IMG/VR virus record: IMGVR_UViG_3300032323_001292
Length of the DNA stretch: 64,000 nt
DNA from: an uncultured virus (IMG/VR IMGVR_UViG_3300032323_001292)
Taxonomy: Duplodnaviria; Heunggongvirae; Uroviricota; Caudoviricetes
Direction: 5' to 3' (one strand)
A program made the translations under genes and the position numbers. Below, one piece after another: positions 2,998 to 61,045 of the stretch (positions are counted from its first letter, which is position 1; the number at the start of each line of letters is the position of its first letter). Under the pieces are notes generated by a model. It was not told the DNA's origin. It saw only the letters and a list, made by a program, of their open reading frames with translations, and searched no databases.

Positions 2998-4704
2998 GTG
3001 ACAAGCGGCCTAGACTTTTCCCCTCCTAGTTATAGGGCAGCGTCTTCTGATTTAACAATCTCTATATCCCCTCTTGGATTAGTAGAATTAGCTGATGAAG
3101 AATTTGAGGTTCACGGTCCTCGTCTAAACCGTTATTCATTGAACTGGGCTATGTACCTAGGTCATCATTATTCTTATCGCCGTCAAACTGGTGAAACCCA
3201 AATGGTGCTCAATTATTACAGAGCATTTACAGATTTCATTATTAACTTTACATTTAGTAAAGGTGTTCAATTTAGAAGCCCTAAAGAAACAGAAGCAATT
3301 GTTCCAGATTTATTAGAACGTGTATGGGAAGTAGACAACAACAAAGCAACAGTACTTTGGGAAATTGGTCAACAAGGTGGAGTATCTGGTGATTGTTTTA
3401 TTAAAGTTGCTTATGAAGAAGCATGGGTAGACCCAGCTGGTCGTCAACATCCAGGTCGTGTTCGCGTACTTCCATTAAACTCTTCTTTTTGTTTTCCAGA
3501 ATTCCATCCACATGACCGTGAACGTTTAATTAGATTTAAATTAAAATACCGTTTTTGGGGTACATCTCTAGAAGGTACACGTCAAGTATTTACTTATACT
3601 GAAATCTTGACTGATGACATTATTGAAGAATACATTAATGATGAACTTATTGACTCACGTCCAAATCCACTTGGTGTTATTCCAGTTATCCATATTCCTA
3701 ACATTCGTATTTCAGGTTCTCCTTGGGGCCTATCTGATTGCAATGACATTATTCCAATTAATAGAACTTACAACGAAGTAGCAACTGACATTGCTGACAT
3801 TGTTAATTACCACGCTGCTCCAGTAACTGTAATTATTGGTGCTAAAGCTTCTCAATTAGAAAAAGGCGCTAACAAAGTATGGGGCGGTCTACCAAAAGAT
3901 GCAAAGGTAGAAAATCTAGAAGGTGGCGCACAAGGTCTTAAAGGTGCAATGGATTTCCTTGCAATGATGAAAAAAGCAATGCACGAAATGGTTGGTGTAC
4001 CAGAGACTGCTCTTGGACAAGCACAACCTATTTCAAATACATCAGGTGTTGCTTTGTCTATTCAGTTCCAACCTTTAATGAATCGTTACCACCAAAAGAT
4101 TGTTCAATACGCTCATGGATTAGAGCGTATTAATGAACTTATATTATTGAACTTAGCGGTAAAAGAACCAGAAACCTTTACTTGGGACCCTAATACTGAC
4201 GTAGAACTAAAAGAAGGTCAAACTCCACAACTAGATACCAATGACCAATTAACATACCGTTCTTACGTACACTTCCCACAACCACTTCCATTAGACAAGT
4301 TAATTGCTCTTAATGAAATTCAATCATTGCTATCTCTTGGCTTAGAGTCAAAAGAAGGTGCTTTACGAGTTTTGGGTGAAGAATTCCCAGCAGAGAAGTT
4401 GAATGAAATCCGTAAAGAACTTCAAGACGACGCAATAGCCGATGGTGCTCTAAAACTTCTACAGACTCAAATTGAACAAGAAATTATGGAACTAACAGGA
4501 ACTACGCCACCTCCAGAACCAGGGGCCCCTAGTGCTGGTAAAGGCGCTGGGGCAGGTATGCCTACTCCTATGGTTCCTCCAACCCTTGATGATGCAGCCA
4601 TGGCTTCAAAACTAGGAGAGACTTCATTAAGGACACAGTTAGTAACTAAAGCTTACGGTACAAAACTTCCTCAACGAAGAGTTCCGCAAGAATACGAAAA
4701 ATAG
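2998..4704 (+). CDS. Portal protein
   Basis: 568 aa between TerL and scaffold/MCP; SPP1-gp6-like portal motifs (NPLGVIPVIHIPN, PWGLSD, SGVAL). Confidence 0.85.
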   Translation: MTSGLDFSPPSYRAASSDLTISISPLGLVELADEEFEVHGPRLNRYSLNWAMYLGHHYSYRRQTGETQMVLNYYRAFTDFIINFTFSKGVQFRSPKETEAIVPDLLERVWEVDNNKATVLWEIGQQGGVSGDCFIKVAYEEAWVDPAGRQHPGRVRVLPLNSSFCFPEFHPHDRERLIRFKLKYRFWGTSLEGTRQVFTYTEILTDDIIEEYINDELIDSRPNPLGVIPVIHIPNIRISGSPWGLSDCNDIIPINRTYNEVATDIADIVNYHAAPVTVIIGAKASQLEKGANKVWGGLPKDAKVENLEGGAQGLKGAMDFLAMMKKAMHEMVGVPETALGQAQPISNTSGVALSIQFQPLMNRYHQKIVQYAHGLERINELILLNLAVKEPETFTWDPNTDVELKEGQTPQLDTNDQLTYRSYVHFPQPLPLDKLIALNEIQSLLSLGLESKEGALRVLGEEFPAEKLNEIRKELQDDAIADGALKLLQTQIEQEIMELTGTTPPPEPGAPSAGKGAGAGMPTPMVPPTLDDAAMASKLGETSLRTQLVTKAYGTKLPQRRVPQEYEK

Positions 4705-5637: not shown

Positions 5638-6708
5638 ATGGCATCTGGTATTACGGGTACCGGCAATCTCGCCGCATCCCCAACAGCGTACTCAGGTACA
5701 AACACACAATTGACTCAAGCGATTCAGACAATCTGGTCAAAGGAAATCCTTTTCCAGGCTATGCCTATCCTTCGCTTTGAACAATTTGCAGTTAAGAAAA
5801 CTGAACTTGGTGTTGCACCTGGTTTACAAATCAATTTCATGCGTTACAACAACTTGGGATTTGCAAGTTCCCTAGTTGAAGGTGTACGTATGAAAACAAA
5901 CGCATTAACAGCACAACAATTCTCAATTACAGTATCTGAACACGGCTATGCATTAGCAGTTTCAGAATTGTTATTGAACGCTTCCTTCGATGACGTAATG
6001 GCTTCTGCCTCACGTCTTCTTGGACGTAACATGGCAATTTACCTAGACCAATTGAGCCGCGATACTCTGTACAGCGCAACCTCAACAATCTACGGTGAAG
6101 ACCGCTCAGCTCTATCTGCAGTTAACAACTGGTATGCCTATGGCACAACAGCTGCTAACCGTGCAGCAATGACAGGTGCTTTCTACTTAACACCTCACAC
6201 AGTTAAGGATGCAGTAGAAACACTATCAACCAAGAACATCCCAAGGTTAGGCGAAACCTACGTTGCGTTTGTTCACCCACATCAATCACGTCGTCTACGC
6301 GACATGCCTGAATTCATCGAAGTAACGAAGTATGCCGCTCCAGGTAACTTCATGCTTGGTGAAATCGGACGTTTGTACGATTGTGTTTTCATCGAAACCA
6401 CACAAGTACTAAAGGTTACAGGCGGTGCTGGTGCAGGTTACTCAGCTGATACAGCTGTTGCTAGCCCAACAGTAACTCCTGGTGGAGGTTACACAACACC
6501 AGCTACCTTTACAGGTAACGGTGCAGCTGACCGCTACGATGCAATCTTCATTGGAGATAACGCATTTGGTCACGCAATCTCACTTCCAGTAGAACTTCGC
6601 GATGGCGGAATTCTAGACTTCGGTCGTGAACACGCATTAGCTTGGTACTCAATCTTCGGACTTGGTCTAATCACTGACCAATCTGTAGTTATTGCAGAAA
6701 CCAACTAG
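5638..6708 (+). CDS. Major capsid protein (N4-gp56-like family)
   Basis: 356 aa, AAGGAG RBS, high-expression codon bias, motifs YVAFVHP, GEIGRLYDCVFIET, DFGREHALAWY. Confidence 0.88.
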   Translation: MASGITGTGNLAASPTAYSGTNTQLTQAIQTIWSKEILFQAMPILRFEQFAVKKTELGVAPGLQINFMRYNNLGFASSLVEGVRMKTNALTAQQFSITVSEHGYALAVSELLLNASFDDVMASASRLLGRNMAIYLDQLSRDTLYSATSTIYGEDRSALSAVNNWYAYGTTAANRAAMTGAFYLTPHTVKDAVETLSTKNIPRLGETYVAFVHPHQSRRLRDMPEFIEVTKYAAPGNFMLGEIGRLYDCVFIETTQVLKVTGGAGAGYSADTAVASPTVTPGGGYTTPATFTGNGAADRYDAIFIGDNAFGHAISLPVELRDGGILDFGREHALAWYSIFGLGLITDQSVVIAETN

Positions 6709-23007: not shown

Positions 23008-23563
23008 AGAGTTAGTTAAGTCTGCTGCTCATGATATGTATAACCCAGCACTTAATTTTGAAATTGCTAAAAAATATGATGAATTAAGCCAGACTGCTTC
23101 TGCTGTTTCTTTTTATTTAAGAACTGCAGAGTATGGGTATGAATCACATCCATTACTTGCTTATAGTGCATTATTAAGAATGTCAGTATGTTTTGATGAC
23201 CAAAAAGATAGAGCTCACACTGTAAGTAATTGCATACTTCAAGCTATTTCTCATATACCTAACAGACCAGAAGGATATTTCTTTTTATCTAGATTTCATG
23301 AAAGAGCTGGTCAATGGCAAGAAGCCTATACTTTTGCTCAAGTAGGATTAACGTTTTCTAAATTAGAATTAGAACCTTTACCTATGAATACTGATTACCA
23401 CGGAGAATATGTTTTACTATTTGAAAAAGCAGTGTCTGCTTGGTGGATAGGTCGCAAAGACGAATCAGCAGAAATATTTAAACAACTAGATGTTATGGAT
23501 ATATCTCCTGACTATAAAGCATCGGTTCAGAGTAACTTAGCGAGGATTAATGTTGCTGTTTGA
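22994..23563 (+). CDS. TPR-repeat protein
   Basis: Helical repeats, AISHIPNRPEGYFFLSRFHE TPR-like segment. Confidence 0.65.
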   Translation: MSSIEELVKSAAHDMYNPALNFEIAKKYDELSQTASAVSFYLRTAEYGYESHPLLAYSALLRMSVCFDDQKDRAHTVSNCILQAISHIPNRPEGYFFLSRFHERAGQWQEAYTFAQVGLTFSKLELEPLPMNTDYHGEYVLLFEKAVSAWWIGRKDESAEIFKQLDVMDISPDYKASVQSNLARINVAV

Positions 23564-24218
23564 TATTGGAGCTAATAGAGGAGACGCTACTTTAGCGGGA
23601 TTAAAAAAAGGCTATGAAGTAATAGCATTAGAGCCTGCTCCTAGGGTCTATGCAGAACTAGTAAAACAATTTATTTATCACCCATTAATAACTCCTCTTA
23701 GGTTTGCTGTGTCTGATACTAATGATGATTTAGTTGAGTTTTATGAATGTGTAGAAGATGGATTGTCTACTCTTAATAAAGACTGGTTAACTAGTTCAGA
23801 GCTACCTTATGCTGGTAAAGAATTTAGAACTATAAAAGTATCTACTATTACATTAGATAGATTAGTTGAAACTTATGGAAAACCTGATTTAATAAAAATA
23901 GATGTAGAAGGCGCTGAATGGGCTGTGTTTAAAGGAATGACTCAACATCATGGAAACCTTTGTTTTGAATGGACTAAAGAGACAGTTCCTGACCACGTTA
24001 ACCAATTAAAATATTTACAAGGATTAGGTTACACAGAATGGGCACCACAATTTATTGTTAATCATTTAGATGAACCTACTATTAACTACATTTCTTTAGA
24101 TAAAGCAGAAGAATTGCCTAAATGGGTTGAGGAAAACGCACCTATTTGGGAAGCTGGATTGTGGCAAGAAGCAGGTCTTAGACCTACTGCAGATGTTGGG
24201 ATGATTTGGGTTAGATAG
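23550..24218 (+). CDS. FkbM-family SAM-dependent methyltransferase
   Basis: FDIGANRG, ALEP, ITLD, LIKIDVEGAE motifs. Confidence 0.9.
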   Translation: MLLFDIGANRGDATLAGLKKGYEVIALEPAPRVYAELVKQFIYHPLITPLRFAVSDTNDDLVEFYECVEDGLSTLNKDWLTSSELPYAGKEFRTIKVSTITLDRLVETYGKPDLIKIDVEGAEWAVFKGMTQHHGNLCFEWTKETVPDHVNQLKYLQGLGYTEWAPQFIVNHLDEPTINYISLDKAEELPKWVEENAPIWEAGLWQEAGLRPTADVGMIWVR

Positions 24219-24815: not shown

Positions 24816-25666
24816 TGCCACTTATTAAACCAGTTGTTGGTGCTTCTAATTGGGGCACAACTCTTAATACAGCTTTAGATTATTTAGACGCAAAACTTGG
24901 TACGCAGGGAATTCAAGGCAGACAGGGTACACAAGGCGTACAAGGACGTCAGGGAACACAAGGCTTACAAGGTGGTGGATTTAATCAATCACAAGGTACT
25001 CAAGGTATTCAAGGCAATCATGGTGCGCAAGGCGCACAAGGAACTTTAGGTATTCAAGGTAATCGTGGTGTACAAGGAATACAAGGAATTCAAGGACAAC
25101 GTGGTACGCAAGGTACTCAAGGCACACTTGGTATTCAAGGAAATCAAGGCGTGCAAGGTGTGCAAGGTAACCAAGGTTCTAATGCAACCATGCAAGGTGT
25201 GCAAGGCATACAAGGAGGACAAGGAACACAAGGTGTTCAAAGTGCAAGAGGGTTTCAAGGTTTTCAAGGAACTACCGGTACTCAAGGTTTACAAGGTCCT
25301 CGTGGAAATCAAGGTGTTCAAGGTCTACAGGGATTAGAAGGTTCACAAGGTGTTGGTAACCAAGGTGTACAAGGAAGAACTGGTAACCAAGGTTTACAAG
25401 GCACACTTGGATTACAAGGAACTACAGGAGCTCAAGGTACACAAGGAACTACAGGTATACAAGGATTAGTTGGTACACAAGGCTTACTTGGTACACAAGG
25501 TTCAACAGGTTCTCAGGGTACAAACGTACTAAGCAACAATCAATTAAATATACTTAATAGTACAGCTCCAGTTGCAAACATTGCTGGAGGAATTCTGTAC
25601 GTAGAAAGCGGAGTTCTGAAATACAGAGGCTCTTCTGGAACTGTTTCCACAATAGCTCCAGCGTAG
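24815..25666 (+). CDS. Collagen-like (Gly-X-Gln) protein
   Basis: [14 protein letters not shown]-terminus, long G-x-Q run, C-terminal [20 protein letters not shown]. Confidence 0.85.
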
Positions 25667-25681
25667 AAAAGGAAATAAATA

Positions 25682-25963
25682 ATGTTAAATCATGCAGCGT
25701 TTACTGTAGGCACTAGCCCAGTTTTATTAGTAACTCTTGGACCAAAAGAACCAAAAACTGCAGTTACAATCGTCAATGACGACAACAACTCTATTTACGT
25801 TGGTGACTCAGCAGTTGCTACATCTGGTGCAGACAAAGGTGTTACTGTAAAAAAAGACTCTCAATTCATATTTGAACTTAATGCTGGAGATAGTATATAT
25901 GCTAGAGCCGCTTCAGCTACAGCCGCTAACGCAGTTTCCGTTCTATACTCAACACTATTCTAA
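25682..25963 (+). CDS. Small beta-rich hypothetical protein
   Basis: 93 aa, AAGGA RBS. Confidence 0.65.
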   Translation: MLNHAAFTVGTSPVLLVTLGPKEPKTAVTIVNDDNNSIYVGDSAVATSGADKGVTVKKDSQFIFELNAGDSIYARAASATAANAVSVLYSTLF

Positions 25964-25980
25964 TAAAAAAGAGATAATAA

Positions 25981-26151
25981 ATGAAAAAAGCAAAAGGAAC
26001 TAAAAAAGTTCAAAAAGTAATGCATGAGTATAAAGCGGGAACACTAAAGTCTGGTAAAAAAGGACCTGGTAAAGGAGCTAAAGTTACCTCTCGTCAACAG
26101 GCTGTTGCAATCGCTATGAGCGAAGCAGGAATGGCTAAGAAGAAGAAATAA
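25981..26151 (+). CDS. Small Lys-rich protein, DUF6496-like (56 aa)
   Basis: MKKAKGTKKVQKVMHEYKAGTLKSGKKGPGKGAKVTSRQQAVAIAMSEAGMAKKKK; KVMHE.K.G.LKSG...QA.AI.SEA pattern. Confidence 0.7.
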   Translation: MKKAKGTKKVQKVMHEYKAGTLKSGKKGPGKGAKVTSRQQAVAIAMSEAGMAKKKK

Positions 26152-26348
26152 TGCCTAAAAAAATTTATAAAACAAAGAAAACAGTGGTTTCTGCGGGAAA
26201 GAACTCTAAAGAAAATATAGAGACCAACCTAGAACAAATCAAACGTTCTACTGGCGCAACCCCTAGAAGAAGGAAAGGCGCTATAATAAGAAAACCAATA
26301 GCGTCTATTAGAAGTAAAGCGAAGGGTATAAATGCCAAAAAAAGATAA
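26151..26348 (+). CDS. Small Lys/Arg-rich protein (65 aa)
   Basis: TAATG-coupled. Confidence 0.6.
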   Translation: MPKKIYKTKKTVVSAGKNSKENIETNLEQIKRSTGATPRRRKGAIIRKPIASIRSKAKGINAKKR

Positions 26349-26499
26349 ACCTGTTTGGGAAAAGAAAGACCCAACTGGTAAAGATAAAAAACTATCGCCA
26401 AAGCGGAAAGCATCTGCTAAGGCCCGAGCAAAAGCAGCAGGCCGTCCATATCCTAATCTAATTGATAATATGGCAGCCGCTAGGAAGAAGAAGAAATAA
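26332..26499 (+). CDS. Small Lys-rich protein (55 aa)
   Basis: MPKKDKPVWEKKDPTGKDKKLSPKRKASAKARAKAAGRPYPNLIDNMAAARKKKK; stop coupled to next ATG. Confidence 0.65.
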   Translation: MPKKDKPVWEKKDPTGKDKKLSPKRKASAKARAKAAGRPYPNLIDNMAAARKKKK

Positions 26500-26687
26500 T
26501 GTGTGCATTATGCGGATGTGGTAAGAAAAAAGGCCAACCAGGATTTGGTAAAGGTCCTAAGAAAAAAGCTGCTAAAAAGACTGCTTCAAAAGGCATGTCA
26601 TCTAAGCAAAAGAAATTAGATGTAGACAAAGACGGCAAGCTAGAAGGTTCTGATTTTGCTGCCCTACGCGGAAAGAAGAAAAAATAA
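26499..26687 (+). CDS. Small Lys-rich protein with CxxCGC and EF-hand-like loop (62 aa)
   Basis: MCALCGC...LDVDKDGKLEGSDF; TAATG-coupled. Confidence 0.65.
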   Translation: MCALCGCGKKKGQPGFGKGPKKKAAKKTASKGMSSKQKKLDVDKDGKLEGSDFAALRGKKKK

Positions 26688-26827
26688 TGTGCGCTACTTG
26701 TGGTTGTATGCAACCAAAAAACAAACACGGTAAGAAAACATTAAAAGCTGCTAACAAAGCATTTGCTAAAAAGGCTTCTCCTTCAAAAGGTAAAAAGTCT
26801 TCAATGGTCCGTAAAAAAGGCATGTAA
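26687..26827 (+). CDS. Small Lys-rich protein with CxxCGC (46 aa)
   Basis: MCATCGCMQPKNKHGKKTLKAANKAFAKKASPSKGKKSSMVRKKGM; TAATG overlaps at both ends. Confidence 0.65.
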   Translation: MCATCGCMQPKNKHGKKTLKAANKAFAKKASPSKGKKSSMVRKKGM

Positions 26828-27117
26828 TGGCAAAGACACCAGCGTTTATGAAAGGTAAGTATACGAAGTCTAAAGATGAAAAAATGGACTCTCGTTTAAT
26901 GAAAAAAGCTGGGTTTGATAAAGAAGACAAAGCCAAGTTTGAAAAAGCTGATAAAGCTCACGGTAAGAAAAAGAAGCCTGCGACTATTGCTGAAGACCGT
27001 AAAAAAGACGATGCAATAATCAAAAAGATTAAATCTAAAGAAAAAGCTCACGAAAAACGCGAAGGTAAAAAAGGCGAAAAAGCCGAAGACAAGATGGAAA
27101 AAAAGAAAAAGAAGTAG
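26827..27117 (+). CDS. Lys-rich protein (96 aa)
   Basis: TAATG-coupled, followed by terminator. Confidence 0.7.
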   Translation: MAKTPAFMKGKYTKSKDEKMDSRLMKKAGFDKEDKAKFEKADKAHGKKKKPATIAEDRKKDDAIIKKIKSKEKAHEKREGKKGEKAEDKMEKKKKK

Positions 27118-27124
27118 CCTTAGT

Positions 27125-27153
27125 AAGAGCCCCTTCGGGGGCTCTTTTCATTT
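27125..27153 (+). terminator. Rho-independent terminator
   Basis: AAGAGCCCC-TTCG-GGGGCTCTT then TTCATTT. Confidence 0.9.
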
Positions 27154-27229
27154 ATCCTATAAGTAAGGCCCATGCGGGGTCTTGAGAAGTACCATGCGAA
27201 GTAACCTGCTAGCTCCTTTGGAGATTGCG

Positions 27230-27322
27230 ATGTTTATTTTAACCTGCTTAAAAACAGGAGTATGGACATCTCTACTCATAGGTAAGTTAACTTGGGTTAC
27301 TAAGGCGGTGTCTTCTATATGA
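27230..27322 (+). CDS. Possible 30-aa hydrophobic peptide
   Basis: GGAG RBS, MFILTCLKTGVWTSLLIGKLTWVTKAVSSI*, ATGA overlap with next gene. Confidence 0.4.
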   Translation: MFILTCLKTGVWTSLLIGKLTWVTKAVSSI

Positions 27323-27648
27323 TTGAAACTGTAATGTTCGACAGCATTGTTGATAAAAATTTTTCTGCTGTCCAAGGTATCCTTAGCCAAAAACTACAAA
27401 AAAGTGCCTCAGAAGCAGGCTGGCCTCAACATATCGTTAACGTACTTTATATTGATTTTATGAATGGAACTGGGGAAGTAGAGTACCCAGAAGAATACGC
27501 TAAAGAGATAGAAGATTTAGAATACGGAACTCCAGGGCAACCCCCTAAACCATTCCTTAGATTATTTAAAAAACACACAGAATCTTATAACGAATTTTTT
27601 GAAAACACTATGATGGAAATTTTATTTGATTCAGGGGTGATATTTTGA
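27319..27648 (+). CDS. Putative neck/tail-completion protein
   Basis: LEYGT..QPPKPFLR motif similar to HK97-gp10-like proteins; upstream of sheath. Confidence 0.5.
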   Translation: MIETVMFDSIVDKNFSAVQGILSQKLQKSASEAGWPQHIVNVLYIDFMNGTGEVEYPEEYAKEIEDLEYGTPGQPPKPFLRLFKKHTESYNEFFENTMMEILFDSGVIF

Positions 27649-28259
27649 CATTTATATTAGCTGAAGATACGGCTCTTAAATCTTTACTTCAAGGTATATC
27701 TGTTGTAGATGAGAAGTCAATATCAAGACCTGTAAAAGTGTGGTTTGGATTTCCTGATGTTGAAGTCCGTGCTCAAGACTATCCATATATGACTATTGAA
27801 TTACTTGATGTATCTCCATCTAATGAACGACAACACTCAGGGTTTTTATATGATAACGACTTTAGAGGTACTATTGCCCCAGTAGAAGGTATTAGTTACG
27901 AATATGAGTACCCTGTTGCTTACGATTTAATTTATCAAGTAACTAGCTATGCTCGTCACCCTCGTCACGACAGAGCAATTATTTATCAATTTTTAAATGA
28001 AAAAGTTCCACATAAATTTGGACAAATTGCAATACCTAATGAACTCGGTACTGAAACATCGTACCGTCATATATTTCTAGATGGGTTTATTAAAAGAGAC
28101 CTTATCGAAGAAGGAAGGCGCTTATTGCGCAATGTTTTTACAGTAAGAGTTGTAAGCGAAATGACACCTGCTCAAGCCGCTACTGCAATTGGAACTGTAG
28201 AAGAAGTCAATATCAATATCGAAACAAGTCATATCCCGTCGGAATACAACCCAATCTAA
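27645..28259 (+). CDS. Putative tail terminator/sheath stabiliser
   Basis: Directly upstream of sheath; YP..TI...D, PVAYDL.YQV motifs. Confidence 0.55.
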   Translation: MTFILAEDTALKSLLQGISVVDEKSISRPVKVWFGFPDVEVRAQDYPYMTIELLDVSPSNERQHSGFLYDNDFRGTIAPVEGISYEYEYPVAYDLIYQVTSYARHPRHDRAIIYQFLNEKVPHKFGQIAIPNELGTETSYRHIFLDGFIKRDLIEEGRRLLRNVFTVRVVSEMTPAQAATAIGTVEEVNINIETSHIPSEYNPI

Positions 28260-28297: not shown

Positions 28298-29788
28298 ATG
28301 GCTATTTATTTAAGGCCAGGTGTTTATGTTGAAGAAACATTAAACGCTTTAGCACCAGCTGTGGGACCAAACTCACAAACTGTTGCTGCATTTATTGGTG
28401 CAACTGACCGCGGTCCTGTTGTTCCTACCCTAGTAAATTCATGGAGCGAATACATAAGTCTTTATGGCTCATGGAATGTTCGTGCTTCAAATGATTTACC
28501 AATCGCTGTACTATTATTCTTTTCAAATGGTGGAAGCCAAGCTTACATCCATAGAGTTGTAGCTAACAGCACTAAAGCAACTCTTACAATGATTGATGCT
28601 AATGATTTAGATACATTACGAGTTACTGCAAAAAACCCAGGTCGATGGGGAAATGATATTTCAATCAGTATTTTTAATAATTCTGGACAAAATACATTTG
28701 ATTTAACAGTTAACTATCAAGGTGCAACTGCAGCTTTTGTTGTTGAAAGATTTAATGACTTAAGTATGGAAGCACTTGATGATAGATACGCAGTATCAAT
28801 TATTAATTCTCAATCTAAATACCTTGATGCAACTGATATGAACTCTGCAAGTACTCTACAAGATAAGAGACCTATAAATATTACGGTTCAAAATCTTTCT
28901 GGAGTATCAACAGATGGAACAGTTACTGCAACAGCTATTTCTGGAGCGGTAAGTGCTTTTGATATTGTATTAAATTCATTAGTATTAAACGCACCTGGAA
29001 TTACAGATACTACTGCTGTTAATCAAATTATTGCTTATGCAGCAGCTAGAGAAGATGTGTTTGTTGTGGTTGACCCAGAAGCTAACGTAACAGTGTCCTC
29101 TGTATTAGCAAAAGCTCTTACATATGGAGACTCTTCTTACGCAGCTGTTTATTACCCAAGAATAGTAATGAAAGACCCAACAGTAACCACTCCAAATATT
29201 ACTTTGACAGTGGCACCTGGTGGAGCTATTGTTGGAAAATACATTTCAACTGATTCTGCACGTGGAGTATTTAAAGCACCTGCTGGTTTAGATACTCGTA
29301 TTGCTGGAGCTGTGTCTGTTCCATCTTTAACAAATACAGAATTAGATACCTTAAACTCAACTGTTCCTCCAGTAAATGCAATTCGTTTTATACCTGGTTC
29401 AGGAATTGTTGTAATGGGTGCTCGTACACTACGAGGCAGCTATTCAGACCGCTATGTTCCAATACGTCGTACACTTATCTACTTGCGAAAAGCGTTAACA
29501 GACTTAACAGAATTTGCAGTATTTGAGCCAAACGATGCACGTCTATGGCGTCAACTAACAGCTGTGACTTCAGGATTTTTAACTGAATTCTGGAATCAAG
29601 GTGGCTTAAGAGGAGATACTCCAGACCAAGCTTACTTTGTTAAATGTGATGATGAAACTAATACACTAGCTTCAATCGACAACGGTGAAGTTAGATTAGA
29701 AATCGGTGTGGCTCTACAACGCCCTGCTGAATTCGTAGTCATCAAAATTGGTCAGTTCGATGGCGGAACAACCGTCACGGTAGAATAA
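28298..29788 (+). CDS. Tail sheath protein
   Basis: YLRPGVYVEE, RGVFKAPAG, VMGART, YVPIRR, VFEPND, RPAEFVVIKI. Confidence 0.95.
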   Translation: MAIYLRPGVYVEETLNALAPAVGPNSQTVAAFIGATDRGPVVPTLVNSWSEYISLYGSWNVRASNDLPIAVLLFFSNGGSQAYIHRVVANSTKATLTMIDANDLDTLRVTAKNPGRWGNDISISIFNNSGQNTFDLTVNYQGATAAFVVERFNDLSMEALDDRYAVSIINSQSKYLDATDMNSASTLQDKRPINITVQNLSGVSTDGTVTATAISGAVSAFDIVLNSLVLNAPGITDTTAVNQIIAYAAAREDVFVVVDPEANVTVSSVLAKALTYGDSSYAAVYYPRIVMKDPTVTTPNITLTVAPGGAIVGKYISTDSARGVFKAPAGLDTRIAGAVSVPSLTNTELDTLNSTVPPVNAIRFIPGSGIVVMGARTLRGSYSDRYVPIRRTLIYLRKALTDLTEFAVFEPNDARLWRQLTAVTSGFLTEFWNQGGLRGDTPDQAYFVKCDDETNTLASIDNGEVRLEIGVALQRPAEFVVIKIGQFDGGTTVTVE

Positions 29789-48541: not shown

Positions 48542-48712
48542 ATGCCTAACGCCCCAAAAACCCCTACTCGCACTATTCGGGTAGCCGATGACCTATGGCA
48601 AGCTGTCCAATATAAGGCCGCTGCCGACGAACGCACTGTTACCAGTGTTATTATTGAGGCTTTAGAAAAATATTTAGCAGAAGACGTTGTGTACGAAGAG
48701 GATATTTTTTAA
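48542..48712 (+). CDS. Ribbon-helix-helix DNA-binding protein (56 aa)
   Basis: MPNAPKTPTRTIRVADDLWQAVQYKAAADERTVTSVIIEALEKYL; classic RHH pattern; not in ORF track. Confidence 0.75.
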   Translation: MPNAPKTPTRTIRVADDLWQAVQYKAAADERTVTSVIIEALEKYLAEDVVYEEDIF

Positions 48713-48849
48713 TGGGAAAACATTTAGATAAAATTGTTAAATCTTTAGAAATTAGAAAAAAGCATGTTCCTAAAAAGTCGGGCTATCATGTCCCAGGAAG
48801 CATGAATAAGAAAAAGACAGGATACCGAGGAAACACCGGAAAGCGATAG
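48712..48849 (+). CDS. Small basic protein (45 aa)
   Basis: TAATG-coupled MGKHLDKIVKSLEIRKKHVPKKSGYHVPGSMNKKKTGYRGNTGKR*. Confidence 0.55.
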   Translation: MGKHLDKIVKSLEIRKKHVPKKSGYHVPGSMNKKKTGYRGNTGKR

Positions 48850-54342: not shown

Positions 54343-54670
54343 GGGACAACGTCAGTCTAGGAAGCACGAGGACCGATTAGCAAAAGTTATCGGCGGCAAA
54401 AGAAATGCTGCAAGCGGTGGCTTTTGGAATCGTAAAGGCGATGTCCGTTCAAAAGATTTATTGATAGAACATAAATGGACTGGCAAAGCCTCCTTTACCG
54501 TAAAGGCAAAGGTCTTAGAAAAGATTGTTGAAGAAGCAATTCTTGACAGTCGAATGCCCGTCCTTGGCTTCCACCTAAATGACGAAAATTATGTCATGTT
54601 GTTAGAGGACGACTTCCTAAGCCTGCGCCACAGACTTCAGGAGTGTTCTTGTACGAAGGCAACGAAGTAA
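54332..54670 (+). CDS. PD-(D/E)XK Holliday-junction-resolvase-like endonuclease
   Basis: HE..LAK, SGG...KGDV....LIEHK. Confidence 0.75.
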   Translation: MPTKGQRQSRKHEDRLAKVIGGKRNAASGGFWNRKGDVRSKDLLIEHKWTGKASFTVKAKVLEKIVEEAILDSRMPVLGFHLNDENYVMLLEDDFLSLRHRLQECSCTKATK

Positions 54671-55008
54671 ATGATTGGCGTTATAAAGCCAAATGTCGCG
54701 GGCTTGACACCGAATTATGGTATCCCCCAAGAGACAAGACTAAATATAAAAAAATTGCAGATAAAGCAAAAGCTGTTTGCTTTGGTAAAGATGGTGCACC
54801 AGAATGCCCTGTGCGTATTGCATGCTTGTTATATGCAGATAGTATGGACGAACAGCACGGTATCTGGGGCGGTCTCAGTCATAGGGAGAGGAACGCTCTT
54901 AAACGTAAAGCCATACGTAATGGTAAAACGTTAGAAGAGTGGGTAAAAGAAAATGACAACAAAGTACAAACCGTCAAAAGCACTAAAGCAGTTCATCGAC
55001 GTGGGTAA
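54643..55008 (+). CDS. whiB: WhiB-family Fe-S transcription factor
   Basis: W...AKC...D.ELWYP, AKAVC...CPVR..CL, GIWGGLS..ER. Confidence 0.93.
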   Translation: MFLYEGNEVNDWRYKAKCRGLDTELWYPPRDKTKYKKIADKAKAVCFGKDGAPECPVRIACLLYADSMDEQHGIWGGLSHRERNALKRKAIRNGKTLEEWVKENDNKVQTVKSTKAVHRRG

Positions 55009-57470: not shown

Positions 57471-57752
57471 ATGTCTGAAGAACAAAAAGAAGAACAAATA
57501 CTGCGCGTATCTAGCGGCAGTAACCCTCAAGCGGTAGCCTCAGCAATAGCCCACAGTATCTATGAAAATCGTACCTGTAAAGTCCGTGCTGTAGGCGCAG
57601 GGGCCGTAAATCAAGCCGTTAAAGCCATTGCAATAGCCCGTGGGTACGCAGCCCCAAGAGGACTAGACCTCGTCTGTGTTCCTGGTTTTGCGTCAATTGA
57701 AAGCCACGATGGACAGATTTCTGCAATTGTATTTTCAATTATTGCTAGTTAA
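57471..57752 (+). CDS. spoVS: SpoVS-family protein
   Basis: ILRVSS.SNP.AVA.AIA, RAVGAGAVNQAVKAIAIARGY, P.F. Confidence 0.9.
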   Translation: MSEEQKEEQILRVSSGSNPQAVASAIAHSIYENRTCKVRAVGAGAVNQAVKAIAIARGYAAPRGLDLVCVPGFASIESHDGQISAIVFSIIAS

Positions 57753-60889: not shown

Positions 60890-61045
60890 ATGCCTAAATC
60901 TAATCCTGCTGATAAATCAAAAGTAGAAACTAGAAAGTATAAATCTACAAATAAAGATATTGATACTTTTAAAGATGCTTATCAATCAGGAAAAGTTGTA
61001 GAAATAGGTTCACAAGGTTTATATAGTGTTAAGAAAGGCAAGTAA
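60890..61045 (+). CDS. Small basic protein (51 aa)
   Basis: MPKSNPADKSKVETRKYKST...; fills the gap, stop coupled to next ATG. Confidence 0.5.
   Translation: MPKSNPADKSKVETRKYKSTNKDIDTFKDAYQSGKVVEIGSQGLYSVKKGK

Follow-up and report, generated by a model that had tools for sequence, protein, structure and literature searches.

Why would a tailed phage place six very small and very basic genes, one directly after the other, among its structural genes? The question is raised by a 64,000-nucleotide stretch of DNA from an uncultured virus of the Caudoviricetes (IMG/VR record IMGVR_UViG_3300032323_001292), the whole of which is called here the window, and in which six open reading frames (ORFs), named o1 to o6, occupy positions 25981-27117 of the + strand. 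An earlier note had described them as an operon of translationally coupled Lys-rich microproteins, and had proposed that they are internal capsid proteins of protamine or histone type, which condense or shield the packaged genome, or else injected effectors that bind nucleic acids. The descriptive claims of that note held in our analysis, and its functional proposal is still the best reading, being partly supported. The six ORFs are real genes, the position of the cassette in the late structural block is fixed, and its families are conserved while their modules shuffle, split and fuse. As for function, we tentatively suggest that the products are virion-associated, polycationic and partly metal-capped DNA-binding peptides, a reading to which we give slightly less than even confidence.

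All six basic ORFs, of 46 to 96 amino acids (aa), were found. The first, o1 (25981-26151), encodes a 56-aa protein of the DUF6496 family with a net charge of +15; o2 (26151-26348) encodes a Lys/Arg-rich protein of 65 aa and net charge +18 that belongs to no named family; o3 (26332-26499) a 55-aa member of phrog_34011 with an invariant GRPYPNL motif; o4 (26499-26687) a 62-aa protein composed of an MCxxCGC head, an Ala/Lys linker and a single EF-hand-like loop; o5 (26687-26827) a 46-aa protein consisting of an MCxxCGC head and a basic body; and o6 (26827-27117), the last gene of the cassette, a protein of 96 aa. The net charge of the six proteins ranges from +14 to +18 and their isoelectric points (pI) from 10.0 to 11.7, and the five most Lys-rich of the 86 ORFs in the window all belong to the cassette (mean lysine content of the remaining 80 ORFs, 6.3%, standard deviation 4.4%). 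Poly-Lys C-termini are present in four of the six, as KKKK in o1, o3 and o4 and as KKKKK in o6. Such ends could have arisen merely because the following gene needs a purine-rich ribosome-binding site, but we rejected this idea, since poly-Lys is equally found at the end of o6, which lacks a downstream gene, and of nearly all family members. At four of the five junctions stop codon and ATG share one base (TAATG), while o2 and o3 overlap by 17 nucleotides (nt). This overlap (26332-26348) contains a run of seven A and the o3 frame is +1 relative to that of o2, so that slippage could in principle fuse the two proteins; in a distant relative (L086) both genes abut without overlap. The note had given three of the six as missing from the ORF track; the default cut-off of the ORF lister was 60 aa, and exactly three, namely o1, o3 and o5, fall below it. 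A promoter-like site directly 5' of o1 was discarded, as 10 such sites were found against 11.7 expected, which is the chance level.

Whether such short ORFs are translated can be judged from the way in which they change between relatives, a comparison that the earlier note had itself proposed together with that of synteny. The relatives were collected via the sheath protein; one of them (L002) carries all six genes, and two (L003 and L007) carry five, without o1. Between the window and L002, o1-o6 show 21 synonymous and 3 non-synonymous codon differences (5/0/19 by codon position), 6 and 1 of which fall in o1; between the window and L003, o2-o5 show 24 and 2 (2/0/24 by codon position), with 10 and 1 in o2. 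The o5 protein is 100% identical in L002, L003 and L007, with only 3-4 synonymous changes. Taken together, the two comparisons give 45 synonymous against 5 non-synonymous differences, and this synonymous excess identifies the six ORFs as real genes under purifying selection in the frames given above. A weak hint of expression comes from contigs of three RNA libraries (two studies), which cover parts of o2-o6 at about 87-99.6% identity; the hint is weak because such contigs reveal neither the expression level nor the absence of DNA. They leave 27220-28107 uncovered, though contigs cannot prove absence.

To evaluate the position of the cassette we gathered 68 further loci with the o6 family. An o6-family gene is present in 75 loci (two contigs being represented twice). 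In 69 of the 75 this gene lies at most four genes upstream of a homologue of the 109-aa protein or of the tail terminator, followed by sheath and tube; two of the remaining six loci end too early, and four differ. The o6 gene is the final recognised family member in nearly all loci.

In the o6 protein a core of about 55 aa is conserved, which contains three DxxxD repeats, and a Lys/Glu-rich extension follows at the C-terminus. Its AF2 model has three helices (predicted local distance difference test, pLDDT, 77), and the residues F38, K40, D42, D57, D61 and K69 are invariant in the family alignment (A1). Homologues were found in 82 metagenomic proteins, none of them from NCBI or UniRef. The core occurs bare, with a minimal MCxxCGC head, with an o4-type head or with heads of 7-9 cysteines, and also with the whole o5 body (P0069, P0079) or the o4 tail (P0061) in front of it. 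Since one core is found with such varied heads, o4, o5 and o6 of the window represent one arrangement of shuffled heads and bodies. Among the 82 homologues, 47 start with MCxxCGC, 5 with another MCxxCG head and 30 without cysteines. Moreover, the distinct gene starts with MCxxCGC overlap the upstream stop as TAATG in 42 of 61 cases, and in the other 19 the stop lies 0-8 nt upstream; thus, a single stop codon lost or gained would be enough to turn separate genes into one fusion or the reverse. When fused forms of o6 of greater length were searched for, one weak match was all that appeared. In one locus (L015:193-474) a Cys-rich gene of the o6 type apparently starts at a non-ATG codon right after the preceding stop, and there the ATG-based ORF call extends the gene too far upstream. 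The best explanation of these arrangements is that aquatic phages keep, in the late gene blocks for particle building and packaging, a portable pool of small polycationic modules, and that the cassette would be this pool in its split-gene form.

The heads themselves are of a known type. Both o4 and o5 begin with MCAxCGC, as the earlier note had observed, and their Cys2, Cys5 and Cys7, straight after Met1, have exactly the spacing of the site in HypB, the nickel chaperone of [NiFe]-hydrogenases, whose CxxCGC motif we took as defined in PMC12284835. In HypB these cysteines and the amine of the N-terminus jointly bind Ni(II) with picomolar affinity, and short peptides modelled on the motif change structure with Zn(II) and Ni(II) (PMC12284835). 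The match of o4 and o5 to the NCBIfam profile HypB_prefix_1 is below threshold (E 0.0014 and 0.0013, respectively; 20 bits for both against a cut-off of 30), and a homologue in L011 scores E about 1e-3. Unlike HypB, o4 and o5, of only 62 and 46 aa, have no GTPase domain, and neither such a domain nor a hydrogenase maturation context was present among the window ORFs scanned. The earlier description of these heads as paralogous metal-binding starts can thus be sharpened to a HypB-type head, although "paralogous" understates the case, the heads being portable modules on several different bodies. One could suppose that o4 and o5 are primarily metal handlers, which sequester or deliver nickel or zinc during infection, their basic bodies being incidental. 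The exact cysteine spacing, the HypB_prefix_1 scores and the large share of cysteine starts in the o6 family, some heads reaching 7-9 cysteines, are what this would predict. We nevertheless regard it as highly improbable, for the heads are optional, being missing in 30 of the 82 o6-family members, they always ride on polycationic bodies within the structural block, and no hydrogenase, urease or other nickel-enzyme gene was seen among the window ORFs scanned.

The loop of o4, described earlier as EF-hand-like, is real as sequence: residues 41-53 fit the PROSITE pattern of a 12-residue DxDxDG loop with an acidic residue at position 12, which in EF hands is flanked by helices. In Pfam it stays below the gathering threshold (EF-hand_1 E 0.028, 14.4 bits against 25.4; Dockerin_1 E 0.0026), and o4 has a single loop rather than paired EF hands. 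Of 64 distinct family members, 25 retain the pattern, and in them it is combined with three or more types of cysteine head.

At the other end of the cassette, the likeness of o1 to DUF6496 proved to be full membership (PF20106; E 1.5e-13, 51.3 bits against a cut-off of 24, profile positions 7-50 of 58), with an AF2 model that is a helix-loop-helix (pLDDT 78.5). Some bacterial proteins of this family have Lys/Ala-repeat tails that score as histone-H1-like HC2 (PF07382), with 47.9 bits in L105, against a cut-off of 40, and 25.8 bits in L120, and other bacterial members end in a Rho_N-like part, below cut-off. Such HC2 matches are confined to the bacterial fusions; none of the six cassette proteins matches this profile at E up to 1. 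The bacterial proteins are full members like o1, but their genes are mostly solitary and chromosomal, whereas the phage member is of minimal size (56 aa) and part of a cassette. In the cyanophage S-CBS4 a DUF6496 gene lies between the portal and head protease genes.

As regards the genes between them, o2 gave no Pfam or NCBIfam match, and its homologues were found only in 15 related loci. By contrast, o3 is a full-length member of phrog_34011 (E 2.5e-19, residues 1-55 on profile positions 1-54 of 55), a family which we confirmed by tblastn in at least 583 stretches of viral contigs, and as a module inside at least 1943 longer proteins. In the 31 loci scanned for its context (78 neighbour proteins), about 20 have terminase, portal, capsid, fibre or virion-protein neighbours, a frequent gene order being terminase, small genes, o3, portal. 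Moreover, o3 frequently adjoins genes of DUF6496 and of DUF6321, and among the longer o3-bearing proteins listed, 23 of 120 contain PF19846. In two of the longer proteins (P0099 and P0133) a CWxGY module, o3 and DUF6321 are combined in a single chain; P0099 could not be placed in any deposited phage record, only its DUF6321 part being matched. Two further proteins, P0084 (625 aa), with the o3 module twice, and P0154 (723 aa), with it once, also carry a family-6 module and DUF6321, and both have glycine-rich hydrophobic stretches near the C-terminus that may be membrane-inserting.

Both the CWxGY family and DUF6321 occur in cassettes of relatives, DUF6321 for instance in L012. The latter is present in 470 deposited phage records, and it leads to a protein of T4-like cyanophages for which virion data exist. 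In cyanophage Syn1 the DUF6321 gene is gene 112, labelled T4-GC119, which lies between two terminase genes and near neck and sheath genes. The GC119 member of S-SM1 (SSM1_115) is a chain of 495 aa that contains the CWxGY module and ends in DUF6321. In Supplementary Table 8 of Sullivan et al. 2010 (PMC3037559), which covers mass spectrometry of purified virions, GC119 is listed as "Structural protein", and three proteome columns give it 13 peptide counts, absence from the genome, and annotation without detection. The column heads were lost in the text extraction, and we read the three columns as S-SM1, S-PM2 and Syn9. The cyanophage GC119 protein is known only as a hypothetical structural protein. 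Like the cassette, the T4-GC119 proteins (SSM1_115, Syn9 gp114, Syn1_112) are Lys-rich and encoded among neck, terminase and sheath genes, they share its module pool (DUF6321 and CWxGY, with the o3 module in P0099 and P0133), and through fusion and fission their length differs between phages, from 276 to 2985 nt; they differ from it in being one long chain instead of six microgenes, and in having no MCxxCGC head. Window-type genes lie within 600 nt of the CWxGY module in 41 of 41 cases and of DUF6321 in 22 of 25, counts that are biased because the loci were fetched with o3 or o6 as bait.

Several lines of indirect evidence favour a role in the virion and on its DNA, namely the fixed place in the late block, the tight coupling of the genes, the fusion and fission of the modules, the H1-like DUF6496 fusions and the detection of a sister chain in virions. 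Since the modules fuse and split freely, they would be expected to work in one place, and because other water phages fuse this module pool into a protein found in virions, the cassette proteins are probably carried in the particle. What we infer for them is that they are expressed late, are present in the virion and bind DNA and metal. Most likely, they would be made late, in a tightly coupled manner, and end up in the virion, where they would be bound to the packaged DNA, condensing it or serving as counter-ions that cannot diffuse away, and would leave with it at infection. Their poly-Lys and Ala/Lys stretches would provide charge, the three-cysteine HypB-type head of o4 and o5 should hold Ni(II) or Zn(II), or form cross-links, and o4 would add a single calcium-type loop.

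A number of observations weigh against this reading. The proteomic anchor reaches the window only in two steps, because the profiles of o6, DUF6496 and o3 score negative on SSM1_115 and on Syn9 gp114; in fact, none of the six window families was detectable in the S-SM1 virion protein, in which only the DUF6321 and CWxGY families match, and the Syn9 member, though annotated in the genome, was not detected in virions according to the same table (PMC3037559), its columns being read as above. The cassette is also variable and partly dispensable, since it comprises a single Lys-rich gene in L047 and L048 but about seven in L085, L063 and L064, and o1 is absent from L003 and L007 in spite of 92% DNA identity over the part that aligns, which begins at o2. 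In a lake metagenome run (X3) we observed a variant contig that skips o1 (joint 25964 to 26166), in agreement with these two relatives, so that natural populations are polymorphic for the presence of o1. A specific partner, more than charge as such, is suggested by GRPYPNL and other conserved motifs. The AF2 models are plain helical and resemble no known fold: the best hit of a wide VIA structure search had a Z of 3.5 and no fold was assigned, Foldseek found no match in the PDB at E <= 0.001, and the ESM Atlas returned unnamed viral clusters only.

The distribution of DUF6496 also weighs on this side. The family is chiefly cellular, with 325 confirmed stretches in genomes of bacterial species from many phyla, on contigs up to megabases, and it is mostly a solitary chromosomal gene, other cassette families being present in about 6 of the 80 loci kept. 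This makes it conceivable that the cassette proteins remain unpackaged inside the cell, where, associated with the nucleoid or with RNA, they would compact or organise the phage DNA after its replication, drive nucleoid proteins of the host from their place or act as late RNA chaperones. The H1-like and Rho_N-like tails of some bacterial members would fit such a function, as would the replication or DNA-metabolism neighbours seen in 4 of the 31 o3 loci. In addition, no capsid-targeting feature was seen in the cassette proteins. Against an intracellular role speak the constant place of the cassette within the structural block (69 of 75 loci), the sister modules inside a virion-detected protein and the window's own replication module (about 42-56 kb), which contains none of the cassette families. 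On balance we consider it unlikely, if still worth keeping in mind.

Some contexts of o3 point to the cell envelope instead. An M15 peptidase carries the o3 module as its tail (P0096), and o3 or DUF6321 genes lie beside a holin gene in the Planktothrix phage Pag-Yong1 and after an M15 peptidase gene in the pelagiphage HTVC204P. The cassette of the window, too, comes after fibre genes. One may imagine cationic modules that bind anionic envelope polymers or membranes and aid adsorption, DNA entry or lysis, either free or as tails of enzymes. Against this, most o3 contexts are terminase, portal and capsid genes and not lysis genes, no signal peptide or membrane segment is evident, by eye, in the six translations, and the two genes that follow the cassette in L012 gave no Pfam or NCBIfam match to a lysin. 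We therefore judge a primary function at the envelope to be improbable, and packaged DNA-binding peptides stay the reading that we prefer.

Small basic proteins that accompany packaged nucleic acid are well documented, examples being T4 IPI-III, adenovirus VII, baculovirus P6.9, the protamines and the nucleocapsid protein (NC) of HIV-1. The cassette proteins resemble them in being small and very basic and in that they would sit with packaged nucleic acid, and their cysteines find a parallel in the cysteine or zinc features of protamine P2 and in the zinc knuckles of NC; they differ in having no sequence relation to any of them and in being Lys-rich rather than Arg-rich. With regard to the T4 internal proteins, no capsid-targeting sequence or protease site was seen in the cassette proteins, and neither a protease gene nor a cleavage motif was identified in the window. 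Thus, while the kind to which they would belong is already known, the cassette appears to be new to the literature searched, in which we found no description of such cassettes and no mention of DUF6496 or DUF6321. Searches of deposited phage records at DNA and protein level with the cassette, o3, o4 and o6 gave no matches, the low-complexity filter of BLAST probably masking these queries. A more speculative extension, which we regard as rather unlikely, is that freshwater and marine phages share a recombining "phage protamine" kit. It would provide packaged counter-ions suited to ion-poor water, with cysteine heads, HypB-type or metallothionein-like, that would lock the DNA by metal or disulfide outside the cell and release it in the reducing cytoplasm, while fusion and fission at TAATG would set dose and mix.

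A strong intrinsic terminator, as had been noted, closes the cassette on the + strand at 27125-27146; its stem of 9 bp, 6 of them G-C, carries a TTCG loop and is followed by a T-rich tail. In relatives a hairpin is found at the corresponding position with another stem sequence, and at each of the 4 predicted pairs both sides had changed in 3 to 8 of 24 sequences. A conserved intergenic motif and a second hairpin follow on the same strand (27151-27183), ahead of the neck/sheath operon. Here, TTTATCCTWWWAGT at 27151-27164 and CCATGCGGG at 27170-27178 each have one exact match in the window, and in the whole block (27151-27207) a TTTATCCT..AGT motif is followed by a hairpin (27165-27183), whose loop region reads CATGCGG, and by another CATGCG at about 27195. 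Among 46 distinct regions that lie downstream of o6 in relatives, 32 contain the loop motif of the second hairpin, whose outermost stem pair covaries (AU 8, GC 6, UA 4). Rfam gave no match across 25600-27700. This block may be the promoter or the leader of the neck/sheath operon.

The profile and ORF scans showed that the window has the layout of a myovirus-type phage genome with every gene on the + strand. A tRNA-Thr and a tRNA-Asn (275-426) lie directly 5' of the terminase gene (368-2065, +), whose listed TTG start at 368 falls within the tRNA-Asn (353-426), so that its true start is probably further downstream. The portal (2998-4704, +) and the major head protein (5638-6708, +) follow, then several collagen-like fibres with a tailspike and a virion protein of 1372 aa, all on the + strand and upstream of the cassette. 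After it come the 109-aa protein (+), the tail terminator (27645-28259, +), the sheath (28298-29788, +), the tube, the baseplate and the replication module. A WhiB-type regulator (54643-55008, Pfam E 2.6e-16) and a SpoVS homologue (57471-57752, E 3.4e-30) are found in the replication/early region, and the WhiB gene points to an actinobacterial host. Near-identical DNA is present in public runs labelled mostly as freshwater or lake metagenome, nine being labelled as fungus metagenome. The host is, from both observations, probably a freshwater actinobacterium. The nearest virus record (G001, a 29-kb fragment) does not include the cassette region, and no cassette is present in the cultured phages that come closest in their sheath protein, the Streptomyces phage GiJojo and its kin (about 40% identity). 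Just 5' of the cassette, among the fibre genes, we observed an FkbM-type methyltransferase (23550-24218, Pfam E 1e-19); in S-CBS4 and a number of viral contigs, glycosyl- and methyltransferases are likewise neighbours of genes for DUF6496 or o3. A basic protein of 102 aa without family match (2620-2928, net +14, pI 10.3) occupies the gap between terminase and portal, the slot in which o3-type cassettes sit in other phages. Two more small Lys-rich ORFs lie outside the cassette, at 48712-48846 (45 aa, 24% lysine) and at 60890-61042 (51 aa, 22% lysine), both without Pfam match.

Annotation pipelines miss a large class of microgenes below 60 aa; hundreds of viral contigs carry the o3 module, to take this one case, and such cassettes supply candidates with which DUF6496 and DUF6321 could be given a first functional test. 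In tailed phages the neutralisation of packaged DNA is ascribed mainly to small ions and polyamines, the internal proteins of T4 being treated as a special case. If the reading preferred here is true, widespread modular polycations encoded by the phages themselves, some of them with putative metal-binding heads, would alter the models of DNA pressure, of particle stability at low salt and of the first seconds of infection.

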